IMG/VR virus record: IMGVR_UViG_2681813273_000001
Strand: one strand, 5' to 3'
Source of the DNA: a virus
Taxonomy: Duplodnaviria > Heunggongvirae > Uroviricota > Caudoviricetes
DNA: 8,048 bases
Shown here one piece after another: positions 1 through 8,048 of the stretch; within the stretch, counting starts at the first letter, position 1; each line of letters starts with the position of its first letter. A model generated the notes under the pieces. It saw only the letters and a list, made by a program, of their open reading frames with translations, searched no databases and had not been told where the DNA came from. The translations under genes and the position numbers were made by a program.

Positions 1-63
1 CCTCAAAAACACCATCATACACTAAATCAGTAAGTTGGCAGCATCACCTCATTCGTCTGTTCC

Positions 64-570
64 TTAAATCTTCCAGGAAATTTCTGCATTGCCGTCAGCA
101 TCACCGGCACCTGTGAATTCAGCGTTGGTCAGCACCACGTTTTTGCCACTGACTGACGTGGACATGAATCCACCCAGCGGCACTTTGATGGATTCATCAG
201 TGGAGACGACAACGTATACCGGATCGCCTTTTTTGATAGTGCTGGCATCAAAATCAGAACCGAGATTAACGGTCACGTAGCCACGCTTCATGGCGTCGCC
301 CGGGAAGTTCTTGCCTGTTCCCACCTGGCGAACCATGTCCGGCTGCGACGTGGTCGGATAAGGGCGCACGTAGATCCCCTTCACCTTGTCTGCGGTATCA
401 CCATCTGCCAGCGGCACGAAAAAACCGTCATCATCGTATTTACCAGCCAGGCCATAGGCAGCGAAGGCGTTATCGGATTTAAGGACCACCGGTTCGACGG
501 TTAAGTCCTGCGGGCGAGAGACAGCCCCGGCAATGCCAACAGGCATCCGGTACAGAAATACATTATTCAT
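64..570 (-). CDS. Hypothetical phage head-module protein (168 aa); possibly a small capsid-associated or decoration-type protein
   Basis: Seen: complete ORF, ATG at 570..568, TAA at 66..64, AAGGG-like RBS just upstream, start 4 nt downstream of the preceding gene's stop (574). Inference: its position after the scaffold-like gene in an SPP1-like head module suggests a structural role; the major capsid gene is presumably off-window to the left. I do not recognise the family with certainty. Confidence 0.5.
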   Translation of the reverse strand: MNNVFLYRMPVGIAGAVSRPQDLTVEPVVLKSDNAFAAYGLAGKYDDDGFFVPLADGDTADKVKGIYVRPYPTTSQPDMVRQVGTGKNFPGDAMKRGYVTVNLGSDFDASTIKKGDPVYVVVSTDESIKVPLGGFMSTSVSGKNVVLTNAEFTGAGDADGNAEISWKI

Positions 571-573
571 TTT

Positions 574-1794
574 TTACCCTTTACGGTTTGCCCAGAATTC
601 AGCGTTTTGTTTGTTCAGGGAAGCGATACTGGTCATGCCCATGTTTAGGCGCTGTGCATCGCCGGTGGTGGCGCGGGTGTTTCGCCCTTTGGCAACCTCA
701 GACACGGCATTAAACGCCATGTCGACCGATTGTTTCGGTAATTTGCGGATATCCGCATCACCGACTATCTGGCGAACCAGCGTTTTGTCAGCAGAAGCCA
801 GAACCTCGCGTTTGAACGCGGTCGGTTTCATCTTACGGCTCAGATCGATACCCGGAACGATAACTTCGGCACGCCAGGCTGAGTCACCAGTAATCGTGGT
901 TTCCTCTTCATCGTCCTCGCCGTCACCGGTCGGATTATCGTCAGGCTTATTATCGTTATCGCCCGTGGCATTTCTTTCCAGCTTAGCCAGCAGGGCTTTC
1001 AGTAATGTTTTGAGGTCATCATCACTGTCGCCGGTTGGATCTCCGCCCATCTCTGGTGCTTTGTCCGGTAGTGGTTGCTGCGGGGACAGGTTGATGTTGA
1101 GATTAACGCCCTGCGGCAAATCCCCCTCATCTCCTGTAACCGATGCGGGAGCCGACTCCACCAGTTCGTTCATGGTGTCGGCATCTCCTGTCTTGATGGC
1201 CGCACGCATGCGGTTCCACCAGTTTTTCTTTTGATTTGCCATTGTGTCTCTGTCTCCAATTGCACAACGATTTCCGGCTCTGCCTTTAGGGACAAGAGCC
1301 ACATGGTTTCCGGTAATATCGACCTGCTCGGCTTTACCTGGCTCGGTCTGCTCGTACTCCGCGTCATAGCCGCACGACACTTCGCGCAGGCCATCTTCGA
1401 TAAGCTGAATGGCGCTTTCGTCTTTGACGATAAGGTCAGCCAGCATCAAATCAGACTGCTCACCCGTCCCGCGCCGGACATTCTGGAGGTGCCCGACAGC
1501 AAGCTCTTTCCAGTTCTCGGGATTTACCAGCCGCACATTCCCGTTTTCATCTTCAGGATGCAGGATCGTGATGCTCATCCCTTCGAATGAGGCAAGCGTG
1601 GCCGGATGGAATACCTGCTCAGGAGAACGCGTGACGACTATTTCACCGAACTTATCGGGTTTCAGTTTTGGCAGGTCATCAGCACCATAGAGCTGCTTAC
1701 CTGTTCGTCCTATCGGCACGTCTTTGCACAGCAACGAGCCGTCAGCCAGGCGGTATCGGGTTTCCCCGAGCCTGGTCTCAAAAAAGTATTTCAT
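574..1794 (-). CDS. Putative head scaffolding / prohead-maturation protein (406 aa) with a highly acidic low-complexity central region
   Basis: Seen: complete ORF, ATG at 1794..1792 only 4 nt after the upstream gene's TAA (1798..1800), TAA at 576..574. N-terminal ~185 aa look globular; residues ~200-300 are D/E/G/T/P-rich with recurring TGD tripeptides. Inference: an acidic, flexible protein between the head-morphogenesis gene and the structural genes is typical of scaffolding proteins; my recollection that the N-terminal domain resembles DUF2213-type phage proteins is weak. Confidence 0.55.
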   Translation of the reverse strand: MKYFFETRLGETRYRLADGSLLCKDVPIGRTGKQLYGADDLPKLKPDKFGEIVVTRSPEQVFHPATLASFEGMSITILHPEDENGNVRLVNPENWKELAVGHLQNVRRGTGEQSDLMLADLIVKDESAIQLIEDGLREVSCGYDAEYEQTEPGKAEQVDITGNHVALVPKGRAGNRCAIGDRDTMANQKKNWWNRMRAAIKTGDADTMNELVESAPASVTGDEGDLPQGVNLNINLSPQQPLPDKAPEMGGDPTGDSDDDLKTLLKALLAKLERNATGDNDNKPDDNPTGDGEDDEEETTITGDSAWRAEVIVPGIDLSRKMKPTAFKREVLASADKTLVRQIVGDADIRKLPKQSVDMAFNAVSEVAKGRNTRATTGDAQRLNMGMTSIASLNKQNAEFWANRKG

Positions 1795-1797
1795 GGG

Positions 1798-2580
1798 TTA
1801 TGCTGCCCTTTTCATTGCGAATGGAACGCGAACAAACACGATCTCTTTATAGCAGCGGCAGTTTGGCAGCTCGCCCGCGTGGCCGGTCATGCCGTCCAAA
1901 GTTGGAGGTGAATCCCAGCGGACGAATTTACCTTTCATGTGATCGTGGGAATCTCGGACATCGCCATCATCGGCTGTACGCCAAATATAACCATCCGAGC
2001 CAATAGCTATCGCTCGGGCCATATCCAGCGCGCCCGTTGCTCTTCCCAGTTCCGTTCGGGCAATCAGATCGGCCCTAGACTTAGCAACATCGCCGGTAGA
2101 TGCAATCTCTTTAGCAAACTGCTCCGCCCGACCACCGGTGACAACAGCCTCTATCGCTTTGTTCTGGATGTCGTACACCCTGTCTGCGGCCTCGAGAGGC
2201 AGAGATTTGATGTACTTGACCTGTTCGGCGATGATGGATTGCATCACCTGGCCCACAGGAGCGCTTTCCACAAGATTGCGGAGCTCGCGACTGATGTTCT
2301 TGCTGTGTTGCCGCCAAACTTTCTCGTTCTGCCGGGTTAGGTCCGCAGTAAAGTTTTCCGCGACCTTTGTCGCCCAGGGGGTGATGATTTCACTGTAACG
2401 CTCCAGCGCCGCAATAATTTCCGTGATACTGTCATTTGAACCATCGTAGCGACCATTTACGATGTCTCCGACCGCCCTCGCTATCCTGCGTAGGCTGGTT
2501 CGATACCGGATTTCCGCCTGACGGCTCCTGCGGTTCGTCATCAGGTTCGCCGATGCCGGGCGGCGCTTCATCTTCGGCAT
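1798..2580 (-). CDS. Phage head morphogenesis protein, SPP1 gp7 / Mu F-like minor head protein (260 aa)
   Basis: Seen: ORF with ATG at 2580..2578 preceded by GAGGA about 8 nt upstream; TAA at 1800..1798. The motif region (ARTELGRA ... NCRC) and the position directly after the portal gene match the Mu F / SPP1 gp7 family (established family knowledge, recalled not searched). The start is uncertain: ATG also at 2571 and 2541, and no ATG/GTG/TTG exists in this frame between 2541 and 2435, so the gene overlaps the portal 3' end by at least 110 nt. Confidence 0.75.
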   Translation of the reverse strand: MPKMKRRPASANLMTNRRSRQAEIRYRTSLRRIARAVGDIVNGRYDGSNDSITEIIAALERYSEIITPWATKVAENFTADLTRQNEKVWRQHSKNISRELRNLVESAPVGQVMQSIIAEQVKYIKSLPLEAADRVYDIQNKAIEAVVTGGRAEQFAKEIASTGDVAKSRADLIARTELGRATGALDMARAIAIGSDGYIWRTADDGDVRDSHDHMKGKFVRWDSPPTLDGMTGHAGELPNCRCYKEIVFVRVPFAMKRAA

Positions 2581-3514
2581 TCTCGATGTCCTCGTCGGTA
2601 ATGGATGCCCCGATGCCGGTTACGTCAGAATTTTCTCGCAAATCAGTCATAGCGGCTTTCAGTGTCATCAGACCATCACCCAGCGCCGTACTGATTGCGT
2701 TGGTGGTGTTTAACGCCACCGTTGAGCGATCGACATCAGACATTTGCCAGAGCGGGTTAAACTCAAACGTGAAATCGTCCGGCAGCGGCTTGCCAAGTTC
2801 CGAACGATGCATGATGTCCAGTATCCGCCGCACCGGAAGACGTAAACGCCTCTCCTGCAACGAACTGATGCGATCGTAATAGTTGGCAAGGTCTGCATCA
2901 CCGGTAGAAAATCCTTTCGGGGACTGTCCGAACAACCGCACCAGTGGGATACCAACAGCGCCACTAATCTGTTCTACAAACTGCGAAAGGATGTCATCCA
3001 GACCACTGAAGCTGTACTGATGGGTTTCAAACTTATCCCGCGAGTCCATGAGCGTCATGCCTTCATTACTCTGGAACTGTCGAATCAGGTCGATATTCTT
3101 CAGCAACGCTTCATACGCAGGACCACCAAGTGCGATAAGCTCGCGTAGCTTCTCCACGCTGTAGGTACGCAAATGCGCCTTGTAGACCAGCTGCGCCGCG
3201 CCGACAGTAGCGCTGTCGAACGCGGTAAGACGATCCCAGATACGCTCTACAACCGACATTCCCCATTCGTTCTCGGTCATCTTCTGCTGAAATGGCAACG
3301 TGACGCCATCAAAGCGAATCAGGCGACTGTGATGAATGCGCCAGGCAGGAATTCCCGTTGCTGTGGTCACCACATCGTAAAACTCAGGTTTACCCAGGTC
3401 CGGCCCCATATCTTTAATGCGGCGGGTCAGTGCCGGGTCGACCATCCAGCGGTCGAGCGGGAGAATCCCCTTAAACTTGCCCTTACCGATGGTTTCGGGT
3501 CGCAGCGGGGTCAT
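2432..3514 (-). CDS. Phage portal protein (SPP1 gp6-like), longest uninterrupted segment of the portal reading frame (360 codons)
   Basis: Seen: ORF from ATG 3514..3512 to TGA 2434..2432, with an acidic C-terminal tail (DEDIENAEDEAPPGIGEPDDEPQEP...) typical of portal proteins. Position immediately downstream of the large terminase. The same frame continues upstream to an ATG at 3898 but crosses two TAG codons (see next feature). Confidence 0.75.
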   Translation of the reverse strand: MTPLRPETIGKGKFKGILPLDRWMVDPALTRRIKDMGPDLGKPEFYDVVTTATGIPAWRIHHSRLIRFDGVTLPFQQKMTENEWGMSVVERIWDRLTAFDSATVGAAQLVYKAHLRTYSVEKLRELIALGGPAYEALLKNIDLIRQFQSNEGMTLMDSRDKFETHQYSFSGLDDILSQFVEQISGAVGIPLVRLFGQSPKGFSTGDADLANYYDRISSLQERRLRLPVRRILDIMHRSELGKPLPDDFTFEFNPLWQMSDVDRSTVALNTTNAISTALGDGLMTLKAAMTDLRENSDVTGIGASITDEDIENAEDEAPPGIGEPDDEPQEPSGGNPVSNQPTQDSEGGRRHRKWSLRWFK

Positions 3515-3898
3515 TGGTGCCTACCCCTCAATCATGATGAAACCCACCGCGCCGCCGTAGAGGCGCGACCATTTCAGCACGTCATTCAGCGCATCCCAGA
3601 TTTGCAACTCATCCAGTTGTGATTCGAGAATGCCACGATCTTTTGCATCAATTTCCGAAGTGATGCGAATGCCTTTGCGGGTCATATCATCCGGGATAGC
3701 ATCGACTGCTTCGCCGATGATCTAGGATGAACGATAGGACCATTCCACCAGCATGCGGTTACGACTGGTGAAATTAGCCCGGTAGGTGGATGCTGAGTGC
3801 TGGTTAGGTGTCTGCATCCCTACGCGGGCAATAAAATTCTCATAACCATCAGCTGTGGCCTGCACAGTTCGCCGCAGGGCTTGTTTGTTTCGTGCCAT
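3515..3898 (-). pseudogene. N-terminal part of the portal reading frame, separated from the rest by two in-frame TAG (amber) codons at 3724..3722 and 3523..3521
   Basis: Seen by hand translation: ATG at 3898..3896 overlaps the large-terminase TGA (ATGA); frame reads MARNKQ...EWSYRSS-TAG-IIGEAVDAIPDDMTRKG...GFIMIEG-TAG-APMTPLRPE... and is the same frame as the 2432..3514 ORF, with no frameshift. Full frame 3898..2432 is 489 codons, which fits portal proteins of this type (~500 aa). Inference: either a genuinely disrupted portal gene, amber mutations, or base-call errors. Confidence 0.65.
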
Positions 3899-5307
3899 CA
3901 GGCCTGTCTCCCCAGCTGTTCCCAGATATCCAGCGATGTATCGATTGGCGCGAAGGCCATAATGAATGCATCAGCAACGTTTGGTGACGGTATCTCGCGT
4001 TTTGCGAGGTCTTTTTTACTTTCGACCATCACACGTCCGTTACGGTCGAAATCACGATGAGGTGTTGTCAGTTCCAGTTTCAGCTTTTCAAGCAACGGAC
4101 AACGAGAATCTATGCTGATCAGCTCATCCACAGGATACTGTTCTCCGTTGTTAATGGCGTTAAACGTATTTCTGAAACGGTCAGCCACCAGCCACCATGC
4201 CTGAGCCTTAAGATTTGCGAAAAAGTCTTTGTTGGGGATGCCGTTGTACTCGTCATCTGGCTCATGCACACCAGCACCGGCGTTAAACCTCTGGTAATTC
4301 ACACGTCGCGCGTATGCGTTCTCGCTCTTCNTCTTCCGGTCAGCGTTAATTTCAGAGAATTTAGCACCGGCAGACGCACCAACACCGATAGAGTCGTAAA
4401 CAATATCTGCTTCACGCTCCAGCGCCGCCTGATAAGTACGCTGGCAGCTCTTCAGTAATTCATCTTCTTTGGCCTTCCATTCGTCGGCCCAGAAAACAAC
4501 GGATCCGTGACGGTAAACGTTAGCGCACTTATCTGTACCACTGTCAGCCACGTCAAAGCCAATACGCTTTCTTCCACTGGGTTCGAAATTTAACGTTTTG
4601 TGCGCATCCACTGCGGCTTCTATCCAAGACAGTTTGATGATTGCCGCATCATCATCAGACTCCGGAACGCCCTCATACACATGTTTAAAACCATCCGGAT
4701 CACGGCGTCGCGCCGCGTCGATAACCTTAAGCATGGTGTCAGACAGAAACGGATTTTCGTCATAGTTAATTTTGCGGATGAGAGTGCCTTCGGGCGGATC
4801 AACAACGAAGTTGCGCCAGACGAAATCAGTAACAAGTCCGGGGTTGAATATGAACCAGCATTCCGAACCCTCTTTACGGATCGTTGGCTCCAGAATTTTC
4901 CACTGGTATTCCGTCAGTGCGTGGGCTTCTTCCAGCCACAACACATCGATCCCCTCCAGTGACTTAATTTCTTCGATGTTGCGCCATAATCCATAAAAAA
5001 CAAATTCCGAGCCAGTAACCCGGTTAATGATTTTGTTGTTCAGAATACGGAAACGGTGCCGCAGACCAAACCTGTCTATCTGAATTTTGAGCAGGGTATA
5101 CACCGACTCTTCGATTTTATTCTGGATCTGACGGGCACAACAAAAACGCAGGGTGTATTTATTCGACAGAAATATGGCAATGCCAGCGGCATCCCATGAT
5201 TTTGACGATGACCGACCACCATAAAGCACTTTGTTACGTGCCCGCATAGTCCAGAAACTACGTAAAGCCGGATTCAGCGTCGGTTTGGATGTCAGAGTAG
5301 AAGTCAT
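3898..5307 (-). CDS. Terminase large subunit (PBSX/SPP1-type, Terminase_3-like ATPase-nuclease)
   Basis: Seen: long ORF ending TGA 3900..3898. Walker-A-like VLYGGRSSSKSWD near the N-terminus, Walker-B-like IDVLWLEEAH, and a C-terminal acidic nuclease-like region (GFDVADSG, DAFIMAF). Start chosen at ATG 5307..5305 (MTSTLTSKP...) with GGAGAG about 10 nt upstream; alternative ATGs at 5334, 5331, 5325 and 5247 cannot be excluded. Contains an ambiguous base (n at 4321). Confidence 0.85.
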   Translation of the reverse strand: MTSTLTSKPTLNPALRSFWTMRARNKVLYGGRSSSKSWDAAGIAIFLSNKYTLRFCCARQIQNKIEESVYTLLKIQIDRFGLRHRFRILNNKIINRVTGSEFVFYGLWRNIEEIKSLEGIDVLWLEEAHALTEYQWKILEPTIRKEGSECWFIFNPGLVTDFVWRNFVVDPPEGTLIRKINYDENPFLSDTMLKVIDAARRRDPDGFKHVYEGVPESDDDAAIIKLSWIEAAVDAHKTLNFEPSGRKRIGFDVADSGTDKCANVYRHGSVVFWADEWKAKEDELLKSCQRTYQAALEREADIVYDSIGVGASAGAKFSEINADRKXKSENAYARRVNYQRFNAGAGVHEPDDEYNGIPNKDFFANLKAQAWWLVADRFRNTFNAINNGEQYPVDELISIDSRCPLLEKLKLELTTPHRDFDRNGRVMVESKKDLAKREIPSPNVADAFIMAFAPIDTSLDIWEQLGRQA

Positions 5308-6022
5308 TGAGGTCACGCTCTCCATTGCCATCATCAATACCTGCATCACGGCGAAGACGATCAGCCTCCAGAGACACCTTATCAGTGGCGGCCTTGCGGT
5401 AGGCTGTATCAGCAAATATTTTTCCTACCGTCGCAAGCGTGCCAACGATGGACTCAATACGAACTGTATTGCGCATCATTGCTTTCTCGGCGGCGCTGAT
5501 ATTTTCAATCAGCATCTTCCTTTCCTGGTCCCCATTAGCATCTTCCAGCGACACCAACCACCGACCAATATTCTCTGCAGCGACAAGGTTGTTAGCACGA
5601 AGGCGAAATAATTCGTCCTCGAGCGTCAACGCTTTAGCGTCCTCTATCACCTCATCTTTGAGCAGAAGGCGACGGGCATAACCACCGTGTTTTAATGCCT
5701 GCTGGTTACCGGGTTGGAATGGGTTAGTCGGGGGATCGGTACGCATTCCGCGTATCGGTTTCGTATCCGGTGTAGATTCTGTTTTTAGTTGCGTACTTTT
5801 TTGTGTAAGGCCAGTAATGGCAGGCTTTCTGCTGGTACGCACTTTCCTTTTTTGCGTACCATTTTTGCAAACCTGCGTACCGCCACTGCGTGCCCAACCA
5901 AGCTTTTTGGCCCTCTTCCTGATAGCCCCTTCTGTAACGCCGTATTTCTCGCCTATATCACGGAGGCTAAGGACTCCGGCCCGGTATGCCGATTCGATGG
6001 CCTCCCAGTCCGGTTTTGCCAT
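5258..6022 (-). CDS. Terminase small subunit with N-terminal helix-turn-helix (254 aa)
   Basis: Seen: ATG at 6022..6020 with AGGAAG 6-7 nt upstream; TAG at 5260..5258. N-terminus MAKPDWEAIESAYRAGVLSLRDIGEKYGVTEGAIRKRAKKLGW matches the HTH-type N-terminal pattern common to small terminase subunits (recalled). Located immediately upstream of, and overlapping, the large terminase gene. Confidence 0.75.
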   Translation of the reverse strand: MAKPDWEAIESAYRAGVLSLRDIGEKYGVTEGAIRKRAKKLGWARSGGTQVCKNGTQKRKVRTSRKPAITGLTQKSTQLKTESTPDTKPIRGMRTDPPTNPFQPGNQQALKHGGYARRLLLKDEVIEDAKALTLEDELFRLRANNLVAAENIGRWLVSLEDANGDQERKMLIENISAAEKAMMRNTVRIESIVGTLATVGKIFADTAYRKAATDKVSLEADRLRRDAGIDDGNGERDLNDFYSDIQTDAESGFT

Positions 6023-6219
6023 GATTATGCTTCCTGTGATTTACTGTTATCGCTGCCTGTCACAATAGGTTGCTTTAATTCTTCCTCATCACTCACTCCT
6101 GCGACGCTCCGTGGCAGGGCCCCCCACAGGAGTACCTTGTAAATGTAAGGTGTTTAAGCCTAAATTAAGTCGTATCACGGTTAAATAGCAAAGAAAAATT
6201 CACAGAAGGAAAGACATTG

Positions 6220-6729
6220 ATGGAGTGGATAAATGCTTTGATGAACTATTTTGTACTTCATCCATATCGCCTATGGGGGCTTCTTTTTATAATAGCGTTC
6301 ACAAAATCCACTTTACTCATTTCGGCGATATTGCCACCAGCATCAATTATGATGGCCACTGTAATTACAGTCAGCAAGACGACTCTTTCACCATGGGAAG
6401 CTGGAATCACGGTCATGAGTGGCGCATGGTGCGGTACTATCGTTAATTACCATCTTGGTATAATAATTGGGCATATCCCTCAACTTGCATGTATAATATC
6501 AAGCCGTTCCAATACAATAGAACGGGTTCGCCTTCAGTTGCAAAATAACTCTGTGTCAATACTTTTCACTTCGCGCTTTATCGCCGTGCTGCGTTATATT
6601 GCTCCTTTGGTGGCAGGAATGTTGCAACTTCATCCAGTGAAAGTGTATACAGTGAGTCTGATTTCAGCTGCTAGCTGGTCAGCACTTTATGTTGGTAGTT
6701 TTAGCTTCGTGTTGCCTTTTTTTAGCTAA
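6220..6729 (+). CDS. DedA-family (SNARE-associated/TVP38-like) small inner-membrane protein; prophage moron (169 aa from ATG 6220)
   Basis: Seen: ATG at 6220 (the ORF track starts at an in-frame TTG at 6217), GAAGGA RBS about 10 nt upstream, TAA at 6727..6729. About four hydrophobic segments. Motifs GTIVNYHLGIIIG and SRFIAVLRYIAPLVAGM closely resemble the E. coli DedA signature motifs (G.AVNY..GR and RF.P..R...P.VAGM), recalled from memory. Visibly AT-richer than flanking phage genes and on the opposite strand to the late operon. Confidence 0.6.
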   Translation: MEWINALMNYFVLHPYRLWGLLFIIAFTKSTLLISAILPPASIMMATVITVSKTTLSPWEAGITVMSGAWCGTIVNYHLGIIIGHIPQLACIISSRSNTIERVRLQLQNNSVSILFTSRFIAVLRYIAPLVAGMLQLHPVKVYTVSLISAASWSALYVGSFSFVLPFFS

Positions 6730-6817
6730 ACTGCCCATAAAAAGCTCTTGCGAATCCAGCTTCCCCCATTCCTCTGACAACAGAATCTGATTTGAAGGAT
6801 AATGAGTAAAATTACCG

Positions 6818-7288
6818 CTACCCCCCAAGGCATTGGATCCTGATGTACTCCTGAAGCATTCTCAATGCTGTCTGGTCGCTGATGATTCCGTCCCGGATAC
6901 CGAGAACGTTTCGTCCAGCAACTGGAGAGAGTTCGACGGTGGCATCATTGCCCATGCCGGAGGCGCTGGAGGTTTCGGCTGAGGATGGCACAGGGCATTT
7001 TCCTTTGACGAGCACCCGACCACCATTATCAAGCTTGCGCCGAAGAGCATCATTTTCAGCTTTCGCATCAGCTAACTCCTTCGTGTATTTAGCATCGAGT
7101 GCATCAGCATCACGCTGGCGCTGCTGCATGTCAGTAATGGTTGCGTTCGCCAGCTTCAGTTCTCTTGCGTTTTTGTCGCGCTGCTCTTTGTAGGTAATGG
7201 CGTTATCACGGTAATGATTAACAGCCCATGACAGGCGGACGATGATGCAGATAACCAGAGCGGAGATAATCGCGGTGACTCTGCTCAT
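6818..7288 (-). CDS. Rz: Rz-type i-spanin (inner-membrane spanin subunit)
   Basis: Seen: ATG at 7288..7286 overlaps the endolysin TGA (ATGA); the ORF track starts at an in-frame GTG at 7300. N-terminal TM segment ([20 protein letters not shown]) followed by a charged, coiled-coil-like periplasmic domain; TAG at 6820..6818. Position and architecture match lambdoid Rz. Confidence 0.85.
6862..7068 (-). CDS. Rz1: Rz1-type o-spanin (outer-membrane lipoprotein), embedded in the +1 frame of Rz
   Basis: Seen: ATG at 7068..7066, TGA at 6864..6862, lying entirely inside Rz in another frame. Product [19 protein letters not shown]|SS... has a lipoprotein signal peptide with lipobox VVGC, followed by a Pro-rich mature region ([11 protein letters not shown]), the hallmark of Rz1. 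Confidence 0.8.
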
Positions 7289-7782
7289 TGCTGCCCCCAC
7301 AAACAGACTTCACGCTCAATCTCACGACGGGTCATCAGCCCTTTCCATTGCTTACCGCCAGCATATGTCCAGCGACGTAGCTGGTCACATGCGCCTTTGA
7401 TATCGCCCTGGTTTATTTTGCGAAGAAGCGTCGATGTTCTGAAATTGCCAGCGCCCACGTTGTAAACGAACGAGTAAAGAGCGCCGCGCGTTGTTTCCGG
7501 TATATCGACTTTGATGTACGGGTTAATTTGTCTGGCGACAGTGGCAAGGTCTTTATTCAGGAGGGCTTTGCATTCTGCTTCGGTATACGTTTTACCGAGC
7601 ATGATGTCTTTTCCGGTGTGTCCGTGACATACAGTCCATACACCAATGATATCTTTGTATGGTATGTAGCTGACACCTTCCAGACCATCGTTACCACCTG
7701 GGCCAGTGATTAACACAGATGCTATAGCAACAGCCCCGCCACCAATAGCAACTGCAACAGCCTTGCGTAATGATGGCGACAT
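7285..7782 (-). CDS. R: SAR endolysin (T4-lysozyme-type muramidase with signal-anchor-release N-terminus), phage 21 R-like
   Basis: Seen: ATG at 7782..7780 overlaps the holin TAA by one base (TAATG); TGA at 7287..7285. N-terminal Gly/Ala-rich weakly hydrophobic segment ([20 protein letters not shown]) typical of SAR domains; catalytic triad spacing E-x8-D-x5-T present ([17 protein letters not shown]). Near-identical by recollection to the phage 21 R endolysin / DLP12 rrrD family. Confidence 0.9.
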
Positions 7783-8048
7783 TATTCACCTCTCGCAGCC
7801 TTACGCTTGTCTTCTCTTATTTTGAAATACAGATTNNNNNNNNNNNNNNNNNNNNNNNNNNNNNNNNNNNNNNNNNNNNNNNNNNNNNNNNNNNNNGTCA
7901 GATAAGTCAGAAGCCCCAGAAGCAGACTTCCCAGCACACCAATCGCAGCCCACTGTGATGGACTGACCTGATCCAACCACTGCAAAAACCAGTAGCCGGC
8001 ACTGCCGGCGGAGGTGCCGTAGGCAATGCCTGTTGATATTTTTTCCAT
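7782..8048 (-). CDS. S: Class II holin (pinholin), phage 21 S-like; reading frame spans a 61-nt N-run; a possible upstream alternative start would lie beyond the window edge
   Basis: Seen: ATG at 8048..8046 (last bases of the window), TAA at 7784..7782. Translation [50 protein letters not shown]-(N-run)[17 protein letters not shown] matches the S21 pinholin as I recall it ([68 protein letters not shown]). S21 is known to have dual translational starts a few codons apart, so the longer form may start off-window. Confidence 0.85.
7836..7896. other. Run of 61 ambiguous bases (assembly gap or masked segment) inside the holin gene
   Basis: Seen directly: n at every position 7836..7896. The flanks are in frame with each other across the run (2 + 61 = 63 nt = 21 codons). 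Confidence 0.95.

Follow-up and report, generated by a model that had tools for sequence, protein, structure and literature searches.

A DUF2213 gene of an enterobacterial prophage as a probable fusion of capsid-maturation protease and internal scaffold

In phages lambda (C/Nu3), Mu (I/Z), and P2 (gpO), the head protease and the scaffold share one reading frame, and lambda and Mu start a shorter scaffold internally. Lambda C is a ClpP/S49-type protease, whereas Mu I/Z and P2 gpO belong to other families. In phage T4, protease (gp21) and scaffold (gp22) are separate genes, and it is Glu, not Asp, that precedes the cut. Herpesviruses encode an N-terminal protease with a C-terminal scaffold and a nested scaffold product (UL26/UL26.5). 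Here we analyze a minus-strand gene at positions 574 to 1794 of an 8,048-nucleotide (nt) stretch of tailed-phage DNA (IMG/VR record IMGVR_UViG_2681813273_000001; this whole stretch is called the window below). A sequence-only reading had described a 406-amino-acid (aa) product in which the tripeptide TGD recurs, and the sequence bears out this open reading frame (ORF). The N-terminal part of the product belongs to the Pfam family DUF2213, for which the labels in use conflict: some databases call it "head maturation protease" by homology, and a recent cryo-electron microscopy (cryo-EM) paper calls it "scaffolding protein" (PMC11456595).

The phages that carry DUF2213 genes include T1-like, PB1-like, XM1-like, and many temperate phages (more than 6,000 hits among representative sequences). 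In the Pseudomonas phage group Pbunavirus, gp24 of Pa193 was published as a putative scaffold only, with no protease role, and its residues 286 to 326 form a helix-turn-helix pentamer beneath each capsid five-fold vertex (PMC11456595). The XM1 structure paper left the scaffold gene unidentified and proposed gp46 as the protease. For E217, the missing capsid N terminus was considered either cleaved or disordered and was left undecided, and the T1 structure paper mentions neither a protease nor a capsid scaffold (PMC11945409). Papers that name DUF2213 give it no function; one terms it "essential" in Burkholderia, which is probably an effect of the surrounding prophage. We found no paper stating that DUF2213 is a protease-scaffold with a cleavage rule and a nested start.

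As a whole, the explanation that we consider best, and likely to be correct, is that the gene encodes a protease-scaffold fusion in which the TGD tripeptides are self-cleavage sites and the scaffold has a nested start of its own. The identity of the N-terminal domain, its fold, the invariant residues, the motif enrichment, and the conservation of an internal Met with a Shine-Dalgarno-like sequence were computed; from them we infer that the protein is catalytically active, which bond exactly is cut in this clade, that the internal start is used, and what the C-terminal domain does. The full-length gene and the features of its protease domain are as follows.

574 to 1794, minus strand: full-length coding sequence of the proposed protease-scaffold fusion (406 aa, 44.4 kDa; from the ORF list and the sequence)
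1252 to 1794, minus strand: putative N-terminal protease domain, residues 1 to 181 (Pfam DUF2213/PF09979)
1558 to 1560, minus strand: codon of His79, candidate catalytic residue, invariant in 114 homologues
1375 to 1377, minus strand: codon of Ser140 (in VSCGY), candidate nucleophile, invariant, as are Gly142 and Tyr143
1303 to 1305, minus strand: codon of His164 (in GNHVALV), candidate third catalytic residue, invariant, as is Asn163

The PF09979 model, shown as "Pa193_gp24" among the precomputed Pfam hits, matches residues 16 to 181 at 145 bits (gathering cutoff, 22; E = 2.8e-42), which places the protein in the family. With phmmer, 6,418 of the 1.84 billion representative proteins searched matched at E <= 0.001. 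PHROG 1961 covers the whole protein (E = 1.8e-198), and PHROGs 12864, 530, 2229, and 3778, whose name is "head maturation protease," match it as well. We scored conservation in an alignment of 114 homologues with 33 to 88% identity, in which His79, Ser140, and His164 never vary and are likely the catalytic residues. Their order and spacing resemble those of His63, Ser132, and His157 in human cytomegalovirus. An AlphaFold model built on the same alignment has a predicted local distance difference test (pLDDT) score of approximately 97 across residues 1 to 180. Searched with Foldseek against predicted viral structures (BFVD), it gave many matches named prohead serine protease, HK97 proheadase, or T4-type core protease, and its three-dimensional fold is, on this predicted model, that of the prohead-protease class (T4 gp21, HK97, and assemblin). 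The families of lambda C, Mu I, and P2 gpO were absent among the Foldseek fold matches. The catalytic triad of assemblin, the herpesvirus protease, is given as Ser-His-His (PMC4498786), and we count the agreement of the invariant His/Ser/His set with it in favor of a protease.

Several results speak against this assignment. The fold was assigned on a predicted model, and Foldseek against the PDB gave no significant match, the best being MCE domains at E = 0.011. A Pfam scan of residues 1 to 185 with E values up to 10 found DUF2213 only and none of Peptidase_S77, S78, and S21; the T4-type Pfam model did not match these residues. NCBIfam gave no match, and a lenient Pfam scan of either half found no protease or scaffold family. 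Because sequence-level membership in curated protease families was not found, the protease assignment rests on the fold and the invariant residues. From these we infer that residues 1 to 181 are a protease of the T4 gp21/herpesvirus assemblin fold.

The remainder of the protein has the makings of a scaffold:

883 to 1188, minus strand: acidic central scaffold region, largely disordered, residues 203 to 304 (from composition and pLDDT of <50 at residues 223 to 257 and 275 to 290)
973 to 1023, minus strand: amphipathic helix DLKTLLKALLAKLERNA, residues 258 to 274, between TGD sites 3 and 4 (helix in the model)
577 to 882, minus strand: C-terminal basic helical domain, residues 305 to 406, pI 10.5 (from composition and model)

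Residues 203 to 304 contain 26% Asp plus Glu and 6% Lys plus Arg (pI 4.05). In the model, a disordered linker (184 to 188) is followed by short helices (192 to 220), by two disordered segments (223 to 257 and 275 to 290) that flank the helix 258 to 274, and by a confident helical domain (300 to 406; pLDDT of 94 to 97 over residues 300 to 370). Within the latter, Pro314, Gly315, Leu332, Phe361, and Asn394 are nearly invariant among the homologues. This domain, being basic and helical, probably contacts the capsid protein. The sequence-only reading had held that a single uninterrupted domain across the protein would speak against it; the Pfam match ends at residue 181, and the model has two folded modules linked by disordered segments.

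A family profile search reached Pa193 gp24 (PDB 9B40, "scaffolding protein") with an E value of 6e-12 through the N-terminal domain; phmmer of the single 406-aa protein against the PDB sequences gave no match, and the homologue was reached by the family profile only. For Pa193 gp24, PB1 gp22, and the E217 protein, the N-terminal Pfam family is the same as here (hhalign probability, 97.3%), the gene precedes those for the cement and capsid proteins, the C-terminal half is acidic with an amphipathic helix, and a linker Met follows GAGGG. The Pbunavirus proteins are longer (465 to 478 aa), their capsid is T = 9, and their repeated motif is A-x-D-[SA], not TGD. Their C-terminal halves do not align with ours. 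As the hhalign match with PB1 gp22 is limited to the N-terminal domain, the comparison of helix 258 to 274 with the capsid-bound helix of Pa193 gp24 is an analogy: a counterpart is possible, and the likeness to "VAELISQVKAILARLEG" of Pa193/PB1 is one of position and pattern, with no significant alignment. Judged as a member of the scaffold class, the C-terminal half fits in its position by the capsid gene and in its helical, acidic, and disordered prediction, and it has no significant alignment to Pa193 gp24.

The protease-like N-terminal domain and the capsid-bound homologue Pa193 gp24 together indicate that the gene is a protease-scaffold fusion. In the head module, the gene has the portal and Mu F genes on one side and the cement and capsid genes on the other; this placement is common to SEN34, vB_EcoM-689R2, PB1, T1, and TLS, and we count it as further support. 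That the gene encodes a capsid-maturation protease fused to an internal scaffold is the part of our explanation in which we have high confidence.

Judged from the modeled fold, the architecture comes closest to that of herpesvirus UL26/UL26.5; lambda C and P2 gpO, the parallels that the sequence-only reading had chosen, are more distant. The fold class is the same, as are the N-terminal protease, the C-terminal scaffold, and the nested scaffold product, which is predicted here; there is no detectable sequence similarity. Assemblin cuts Ala/Ser bonds at two sites, compared with the approximately seven T-x-D sites proposed for the 406-aa protein, and the shorter herpesvirus product comes from a separate transcript, not from a Shine-Dalgarno site inside the message.

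In our gene, such an internal site was already part of the sequence-only reading, and it is present where that reading had put it, at the boundary between the Pfam domain and the rest of the protein:

1222 to 1251, minus strand: disordered linker from protease to scaffold, residues 182 to 191 (pLDDT of <50 at residues 184 to 188; the Pfam domain ends at 181)
1254 to 1257, minus strand: Shine-Dalgarno-like GGAG in the codons of Gly180 and Asp181 (GGA GAC), 11 nt before the internal ATG
1240 to 1242, minus strand: internal in-frame ATG (Met185), probable scaffold-only start (from linker position and conservation)
574 to 1242, minus strand: nested frame of the predicted scaffold-only protein, residues 185 to 406, 24.0 kDa

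Met185 falls within residues 184 to 188, where alone in this part of the protein the model has low confidence. A Met occurs within the 14 residues after the invariant Asp181 in 106 of the 114 homologues (24% expected; binomial P = 7e-55), at varying offsets in a linker that is otherwise unconserved. In 86 of 106 cases (81%), Ala, Lys, Thr, or Ser follows this Met directly, compared with 313 of 876 (36%) for other internal Met residues (P = 2e-19), and this is, by sequence, what real N termini look like. The codon for Gly180 was GGA or GGG in 72 of 72 distinct sequences of the window's clade, and GGT plus GGC make up 65% of the Gly codons in the same genes. The duplex energy of GGAG, -6.4 kcal/mol, is in the top 8% of the codon positions of the gene, and the gene's own start has -4.4.

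A Shine-Dalgarno-like sequence precedes the linker Met in every clade for which we examined DNA and in which the Met is present: GGAG or GGGGA in the window's clade and in Mulock, GAGGA in T1, GAGG in TLS, GAGGG in PB1, AAGGAG in CP-T1, and AGGAGG in PLPE. The pairing energies lie in the top 1 to 14% of the codon positions of each gene, often beating the annotated start, and the combined P value is 4e-7 across clades that are not fully independent. Two points count against an internal start: the spacer of 11 nt is longer than optimal, and gp51 of phage phiEcoM-GJ1 has no linker Met. On balance, we lean toward the Met185 start being used to make a scaffold-only product. The suggestion of a protease-scaffold with a shorter nested scaffold thus fits the fold, the invariant residues, the acidic helical half, and the conserved Met with its Shine-Dalgarno-like sequence, with the short product itself being predicted. 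In a JGI metagenome contig (positions 3001 to 4166), two ORFs in different frames take the place of the gene, one of 199 aa for the protease and one of 198 aa for the scaffold, and about 12 residues, including the first TGD, are missing where they meet. We do not take this for a natural two-gene version; a frameshift or deletion after the linker is most likely, and the case is uninformative.

The TGD tripeptides had been put at "about eight" in an acidic stretch at roughly 880 to 1200. We counted seven, the same number as in the list given there, at residues 202, 220, 254, 277, 289, 302, and 377. The clustering holds for six of them, encoded within 883 to 1191, and not for the seventh, at 658 to 666.

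1183 to 1191, minus strand: TGD site 1 (KTGDA), residues 202 to 204; aligned column Asp in 99 of 114
1129 to 1137, minus strand: TGD site 2 (VTGDE), residues 220 to 222; kept in close homologues, region gapped in distant ones
1027 to 1035, minus strand: TGD site 3 (PTGDS), residues 254 to 256; aligned column Asp in 93 of 114
958 to 966, minus strand: TGD site 4 (ATGDN), residues 277 to 279; aligned column Asp in 88 of 114
922 to 930, minus strand: TGD site 5 (PTGDG), residues 289 to 291; aligned column Asp in 93 of 114
883 to 891, minus strand: TGD site 6 (ITGDSA), residues 302 to 304, at the entry to the C-terminal domain; best conserved (Thr 73, Gly 50, and Asp 100 of 114, then Ser/Ala)
658 to 666, minus strand: TGD site 7 (TTGDA), residues 377 to 379, at the end of the long helix 354 to 377; kept in close homologues only

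Shuffles that preserved the composition gave 0.13 to 0.21 expected TGD and a maximum of 3 to 4, and none of 20,000 reached seven. The seven sites are encoded with four Thr, three Gly, and two Asp codons, and a search for DNA repeats beneath them found chance pairs of 12 to 14 nt only. The varied codons and the lack of a DNA repeat indicate that the recurrence is maintained by selection on the peptide. Close homologues keep TGD in 3 to 10 copies (120 proteins). Five of the seven sites fall in columns with Asp in 88 to 100 and Thr in 37 to 73 of the 114 homologues, with Ala, Ser, or Glu following in most cases. Among 125 representative homologues with at most 50% mutual identity, no other gapped pair came near T.D in enrichment within the C-terminal halves (763 compared with 198 expected; z = 40). 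By these comparisons, a T-x-D motif runs through the family, and TGD is the form that it takes here. In the model, each of the seven sites is either at the end of a helix or in a disordered segment, and cutting at all of them would give pieces of 12 to 75 residues.

A role for the motif is suggested by the capsid proteins of relatives, whose N termini are missing in TLS, T1, E217, Pa193, and XM1. The relatives T1 gp50 and TLS gp33 (Drexlerviridae; "head maturation protease" in RefSeq) share with our protein the DUF2213 domain, the gene order, a linker Met with GAGG upstream, and a repeated x-x-D-[AS] motif that equals the capsid maturation site; tblastn also links the N-terminal domain to the T1-like phages Rtp and Jk06. 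They differ in having Lys, not Thr, two residues before the cut (K-x-D), in their length of 369 to 370 aa, and in belonging to siphoviruses. Each of the two scaffold halves contains K-x-D-[AS] six times (0.5 to 0.6 expected; P < 5e-5), and each whole capsid protein contains it exactly once, at the boundary of the mature end. The mature TLS capsid protein starts with ASDMGIW by Edman sequencing (PMC11447400). In the TLS RefSeq capsid ORF (15072 to 16061), this sequence starts at residue 33, right after A-K-N-D32, so that 32 residues would be removed. The first residue of the T1 capsid model is Ala27 (PMC11945409), which stands right after V-K-Q-D26. The capsid models of E217 and Pa193 start at residue 66, after S-A-M-D64-S65. 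PB1 gp22 contains A-x-D-[AS] four times (P = 0.003), and the capsid protein contains it once, at the D64-S65 spot. In the window's clade, the capsid protein begins with MITFDQATVD/SSGAF (the slash marks the proposed cut), with ATVD/S at residues 7 to 11, and T-[VIF]-D occupies residues 8 to 10 in 28 of 28 distinct full-length N termini.

From the motif at the mature capsid end in TLS, T1, E217, and Pa193, it follows that TGD most likely marks cleavage after Asp. Comparing the sequences, we propose a rule in which the cut comes after Asp and the residue two positions earlier is specific to the clade (Thr here, Lys in T1-like phages, and Ala in PB1-like phages). The T4 gp21 sites, Leu/Ile-x-Glu, follow the same logic. 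A fair degree of confidence therefore seems warranted that the TGD tripeptides are cleavage sites of the gene's own protease, with the scissile bond in this clade predicted from the relatives. A number of observations weigh on the other side. The TLS authors put the removal at 45 residues (PMC11447400), an estimate that disagrees with their own Edman sequence, which maps to residue 33. A first modeled residue in cryo-EM is no proof of a cut and is weaker than an N-terminal sequence, and in E217 and Pa193 this residue is one beyond the proposed bond. The patterns of PB1, CP-T1, and PLPE were picked after inspection of the sequences, and T-x-D ahead of helices could serve as a helix cap. We set aside the cleavage at Glu120/Ser121 in phage P1, which is made by the HK97-like Pro, a different protease.

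Motifs of this kind also occur elsewhere in the head module of the window. The Mu F-like protein (1798 to 2580) contains IASTGDVA and three more T-x-D sites, and the portal protein (2432 to 3514) contains FSTGDADL in its conserved part and, in the acidic tail at its C terminus, PTQDS; no such motif occurs in the large terminase, Rz, or the endolysin. The portal and Mu F-like proteins, which are expected inside the prohead, might be trimmed too, with numbers too small to judge.

In the mechanism that we propose, residues 185 to 406 would act as the scaffold, with a short helical segment, an acidic disordered stretch bearing the amphipathic helix, and the basic helical C-terminal domain. Ribosomes would begin also at Met185 and make the scaffold alone, such that procapsids would hold many scaffold copies and few protease-tagged ones. 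After closure of the shell, each T-x-D site would be cut by the protease directly behind its Asp, and the scaffold pieces of 12 to 75 residues would exit ahead of DNA packaging. The capsid protein, too, would lose its N-terminal end to the protease, at ATVD/S.

Other explanations can be given for the same observations. The fusion could be real and TGD, or T-x-D in general, could be helix N-caps, short linear motifs for capsid docking, or cation-binding sites. Thr and Asp are common helix-capping residues, all seven TGD sites lie at helix boundaries or loops in the model, and TGD occurs also once in the Mu F-like protein and once in the conserved part of the portal, all of which would suit a structural motif. 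However, the sites at residues 220, 254, 277, and 289 lie in or beside segments with pLDDT of <50, not before stable helices. Capping also leaves unexplained why the capsid proteins of T1, TLS, and PB1 contain the form of the motif specific to their clade a single time, at the experimentally indicated mature end, and a chosen residue, any residue, and an acidic residue before the cut are the logic of T4 gp21. We therefore regard a purely structural role as improbable, though worth keeping in mind. The recurrence could instead come by chance from the composition or from a recent internal duplication, in line with a region rich in Asp, Gly, Pro, and Thr and with one close homologue in which a 40-residue insertion duplicates EPTGDGE. 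The sequence-only reading had allowed for such a compositional bias. This possibility is refuted by the shuffles, the differing codons, the lack of DNA repeats, and the family-wide enrichment, and we give it practically no weight.

The full-length 406-aa protein might be the only product, with the linker Met and the purine-rich sequence kept for nontranslational reasons, such as a Gly-Asp pair that closes the protease domain. GGAG is made of the codons of Gly180 and the invariant Asp181 and is thus partly fixed by the protein; the long spacer in the window and the Met-less GJ1 protein point the same way. Constraint on the protein fails, however, to account for a Gly180 codon that is GGA or GGG in all 72 sequences, the presence of a Met at variable offsets in an unconserved disordered linker, the N-terminus-like residue that follows it, and AGGAGG in PLPE and AAGGAG in CP-T1, where the local protein sequence differs. 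A single product is therefore unlikely in our view, although it is the most credible of the alternatives. Finally, the protein might be a pure scaffold with an inactive protease-like fold at its N terminus, and the protease might come from another gene or proteolysis might not take place. The wording of the Pa193 authors, to whom gp24 is only a putative scaffolding protein (PMC11456595), agrees with this, as do the choice of a different gene, gp46, as the XM1 protease and the lack of a sequence-level match to curated protease families. Strict invariance of His, Ser, and His within conserved motifs would be unexpected for a dead enzyme, we saw no other protease-like gene among the head genes of either the window or SEN34, and the capsid proteins of phages with a DUF2213 gene lose their N termini. 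We consider a pure scaffold very unlikely and prefer the protease-scaffold fusion.

The window comprises the lysis cassette and head module of an enterobacterial temperate myovirus, with every gene on the minus strand, in the order holin, endolysin, Rz, small terminase, large terminase, DUF1073 portal, Mu F-like gene, the gene at 574 to 1794, and cement/decoration. Two genes flank ours:

64 to 570, minus strand: capsid cement/decoration gene, downstream (Pfam XM1_gp53_minor_capsid, E = 4.4e-30; Phage_cement, E = 2.8e-21)
1798 to 2580, minus strand: Mu F-like head morphogenesis gene, upstream (Pfam Phage_Mu_F, E = 1.5e-18)

The real start of the Mu F-like gene is probably internal to its ORF, as relatives are annotated at 176 to 202 aa. 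Among phage records, the Escherichia phages of the vB_EcoM-689R2 group come closest, with 94.5% DNA identity over 49 to 3951, followed by Salmonella phage SEN34 (Brunovirus; 83%), and in both the major capsid gene comes directly after the cement gene. Enterobacterial prophages commonly hold copies of the 406-aa protein at 97 to 98% identity.

The window has a mosaic junction at approximately 3900 to 3950, with 49 to 3951 similar to vB_EcoM-689R2 and SEN34 and 3903 to 7728 similar to Klebsiella prophages (e.g., ST16-OXA48phi5.2). The large terminase shares only 36% identity with its vB_EcoM-689R2 counterpart, over the C-terminal half. Its ORF (3898 to 5415) opens with TTG in the program-made ORF list and overlaps by 158 nt with the small-terminase ORF (5258 to 6022), which is 254 aa long compared with 190 to 209 aa in relatives; the true starts of the terminase genes may differ from those listed, or the genes may not be intact. 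At 4331, within the large terminase gene, stands a single N, and positions 7836 to 7896, within the holin gene, are 61 Ns in a row. Another IMG/VR contig, UViG_2648501245_000003, contains about 1.3 kb of additional DNA inside the large terminase gene and is otherwise 99% identical, with length differences of 6 nt (4331 to 4336, at the single N), 7 nt, and 17 nt.

The ORF at 574 to 1794 is itself intact, and its surroundings are damaged. Positions 1 to 48 of the window are the end of the insertion sequence IS1 (terminal inverted repeat; 72,293 matches in Escherichia coli genomes), and in an annotated genome these 48 bases adjoin an IS1A transposase gene. IS1 interrupts the major capsid gene behind its first four nucleotides (ATGA), with the junction at 48/49; relatives have an intact capsid gene here. 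The prophage is therefore unable to make its capsid protein. The portal gene (2435 to 3898) is 98% identical to that of the intact 488-aa portal of vB_EcoM-689R2 and contains two in-frame TAG codons on the minus strand, at 3521 to 3523 (Gln125 of the relative) and 3722 to 3724 (Trp59 of the relative), which are either a further sign of a decaying prophage or sequence errors. Because IS1 cuts the capsid gene and the portal gene has two stop codons, the head module here is probably a relic in which the gene is no longer used.

The gene itself is an ordinary member of a known design, that of the protease-scaffold with a nested scaffold. The wider reading is that the whole DUF2213 family is the phage counterpart of UL26/UL26.5, with a protease of the assemblin fold that cuts after Asp (with Thr, Ala, or Lys two residues earlier), its own sites along the fused scaffold, and a coexpressed nested scaffold; we hold the chances for and against this to be about even. 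A protease-scaffold fusion reconciles both database labels of DUF2213. In TLS, the cleavage rule puts the cut at the Edman N terminus; in T1, the cut falls directly before the first modeled residue, and in E217 and Pa193 a single residue separates the two. If true, the rule would predict the mature N termini of capsid proteins, and several phages with recently solved structures would find their "missing" protease and scaffold in the DUF2213 family. A second, unannotated product is predicted in hundreds of phage genomes, and recognizing it would improve both their annotation and the reading of density inside capsids.

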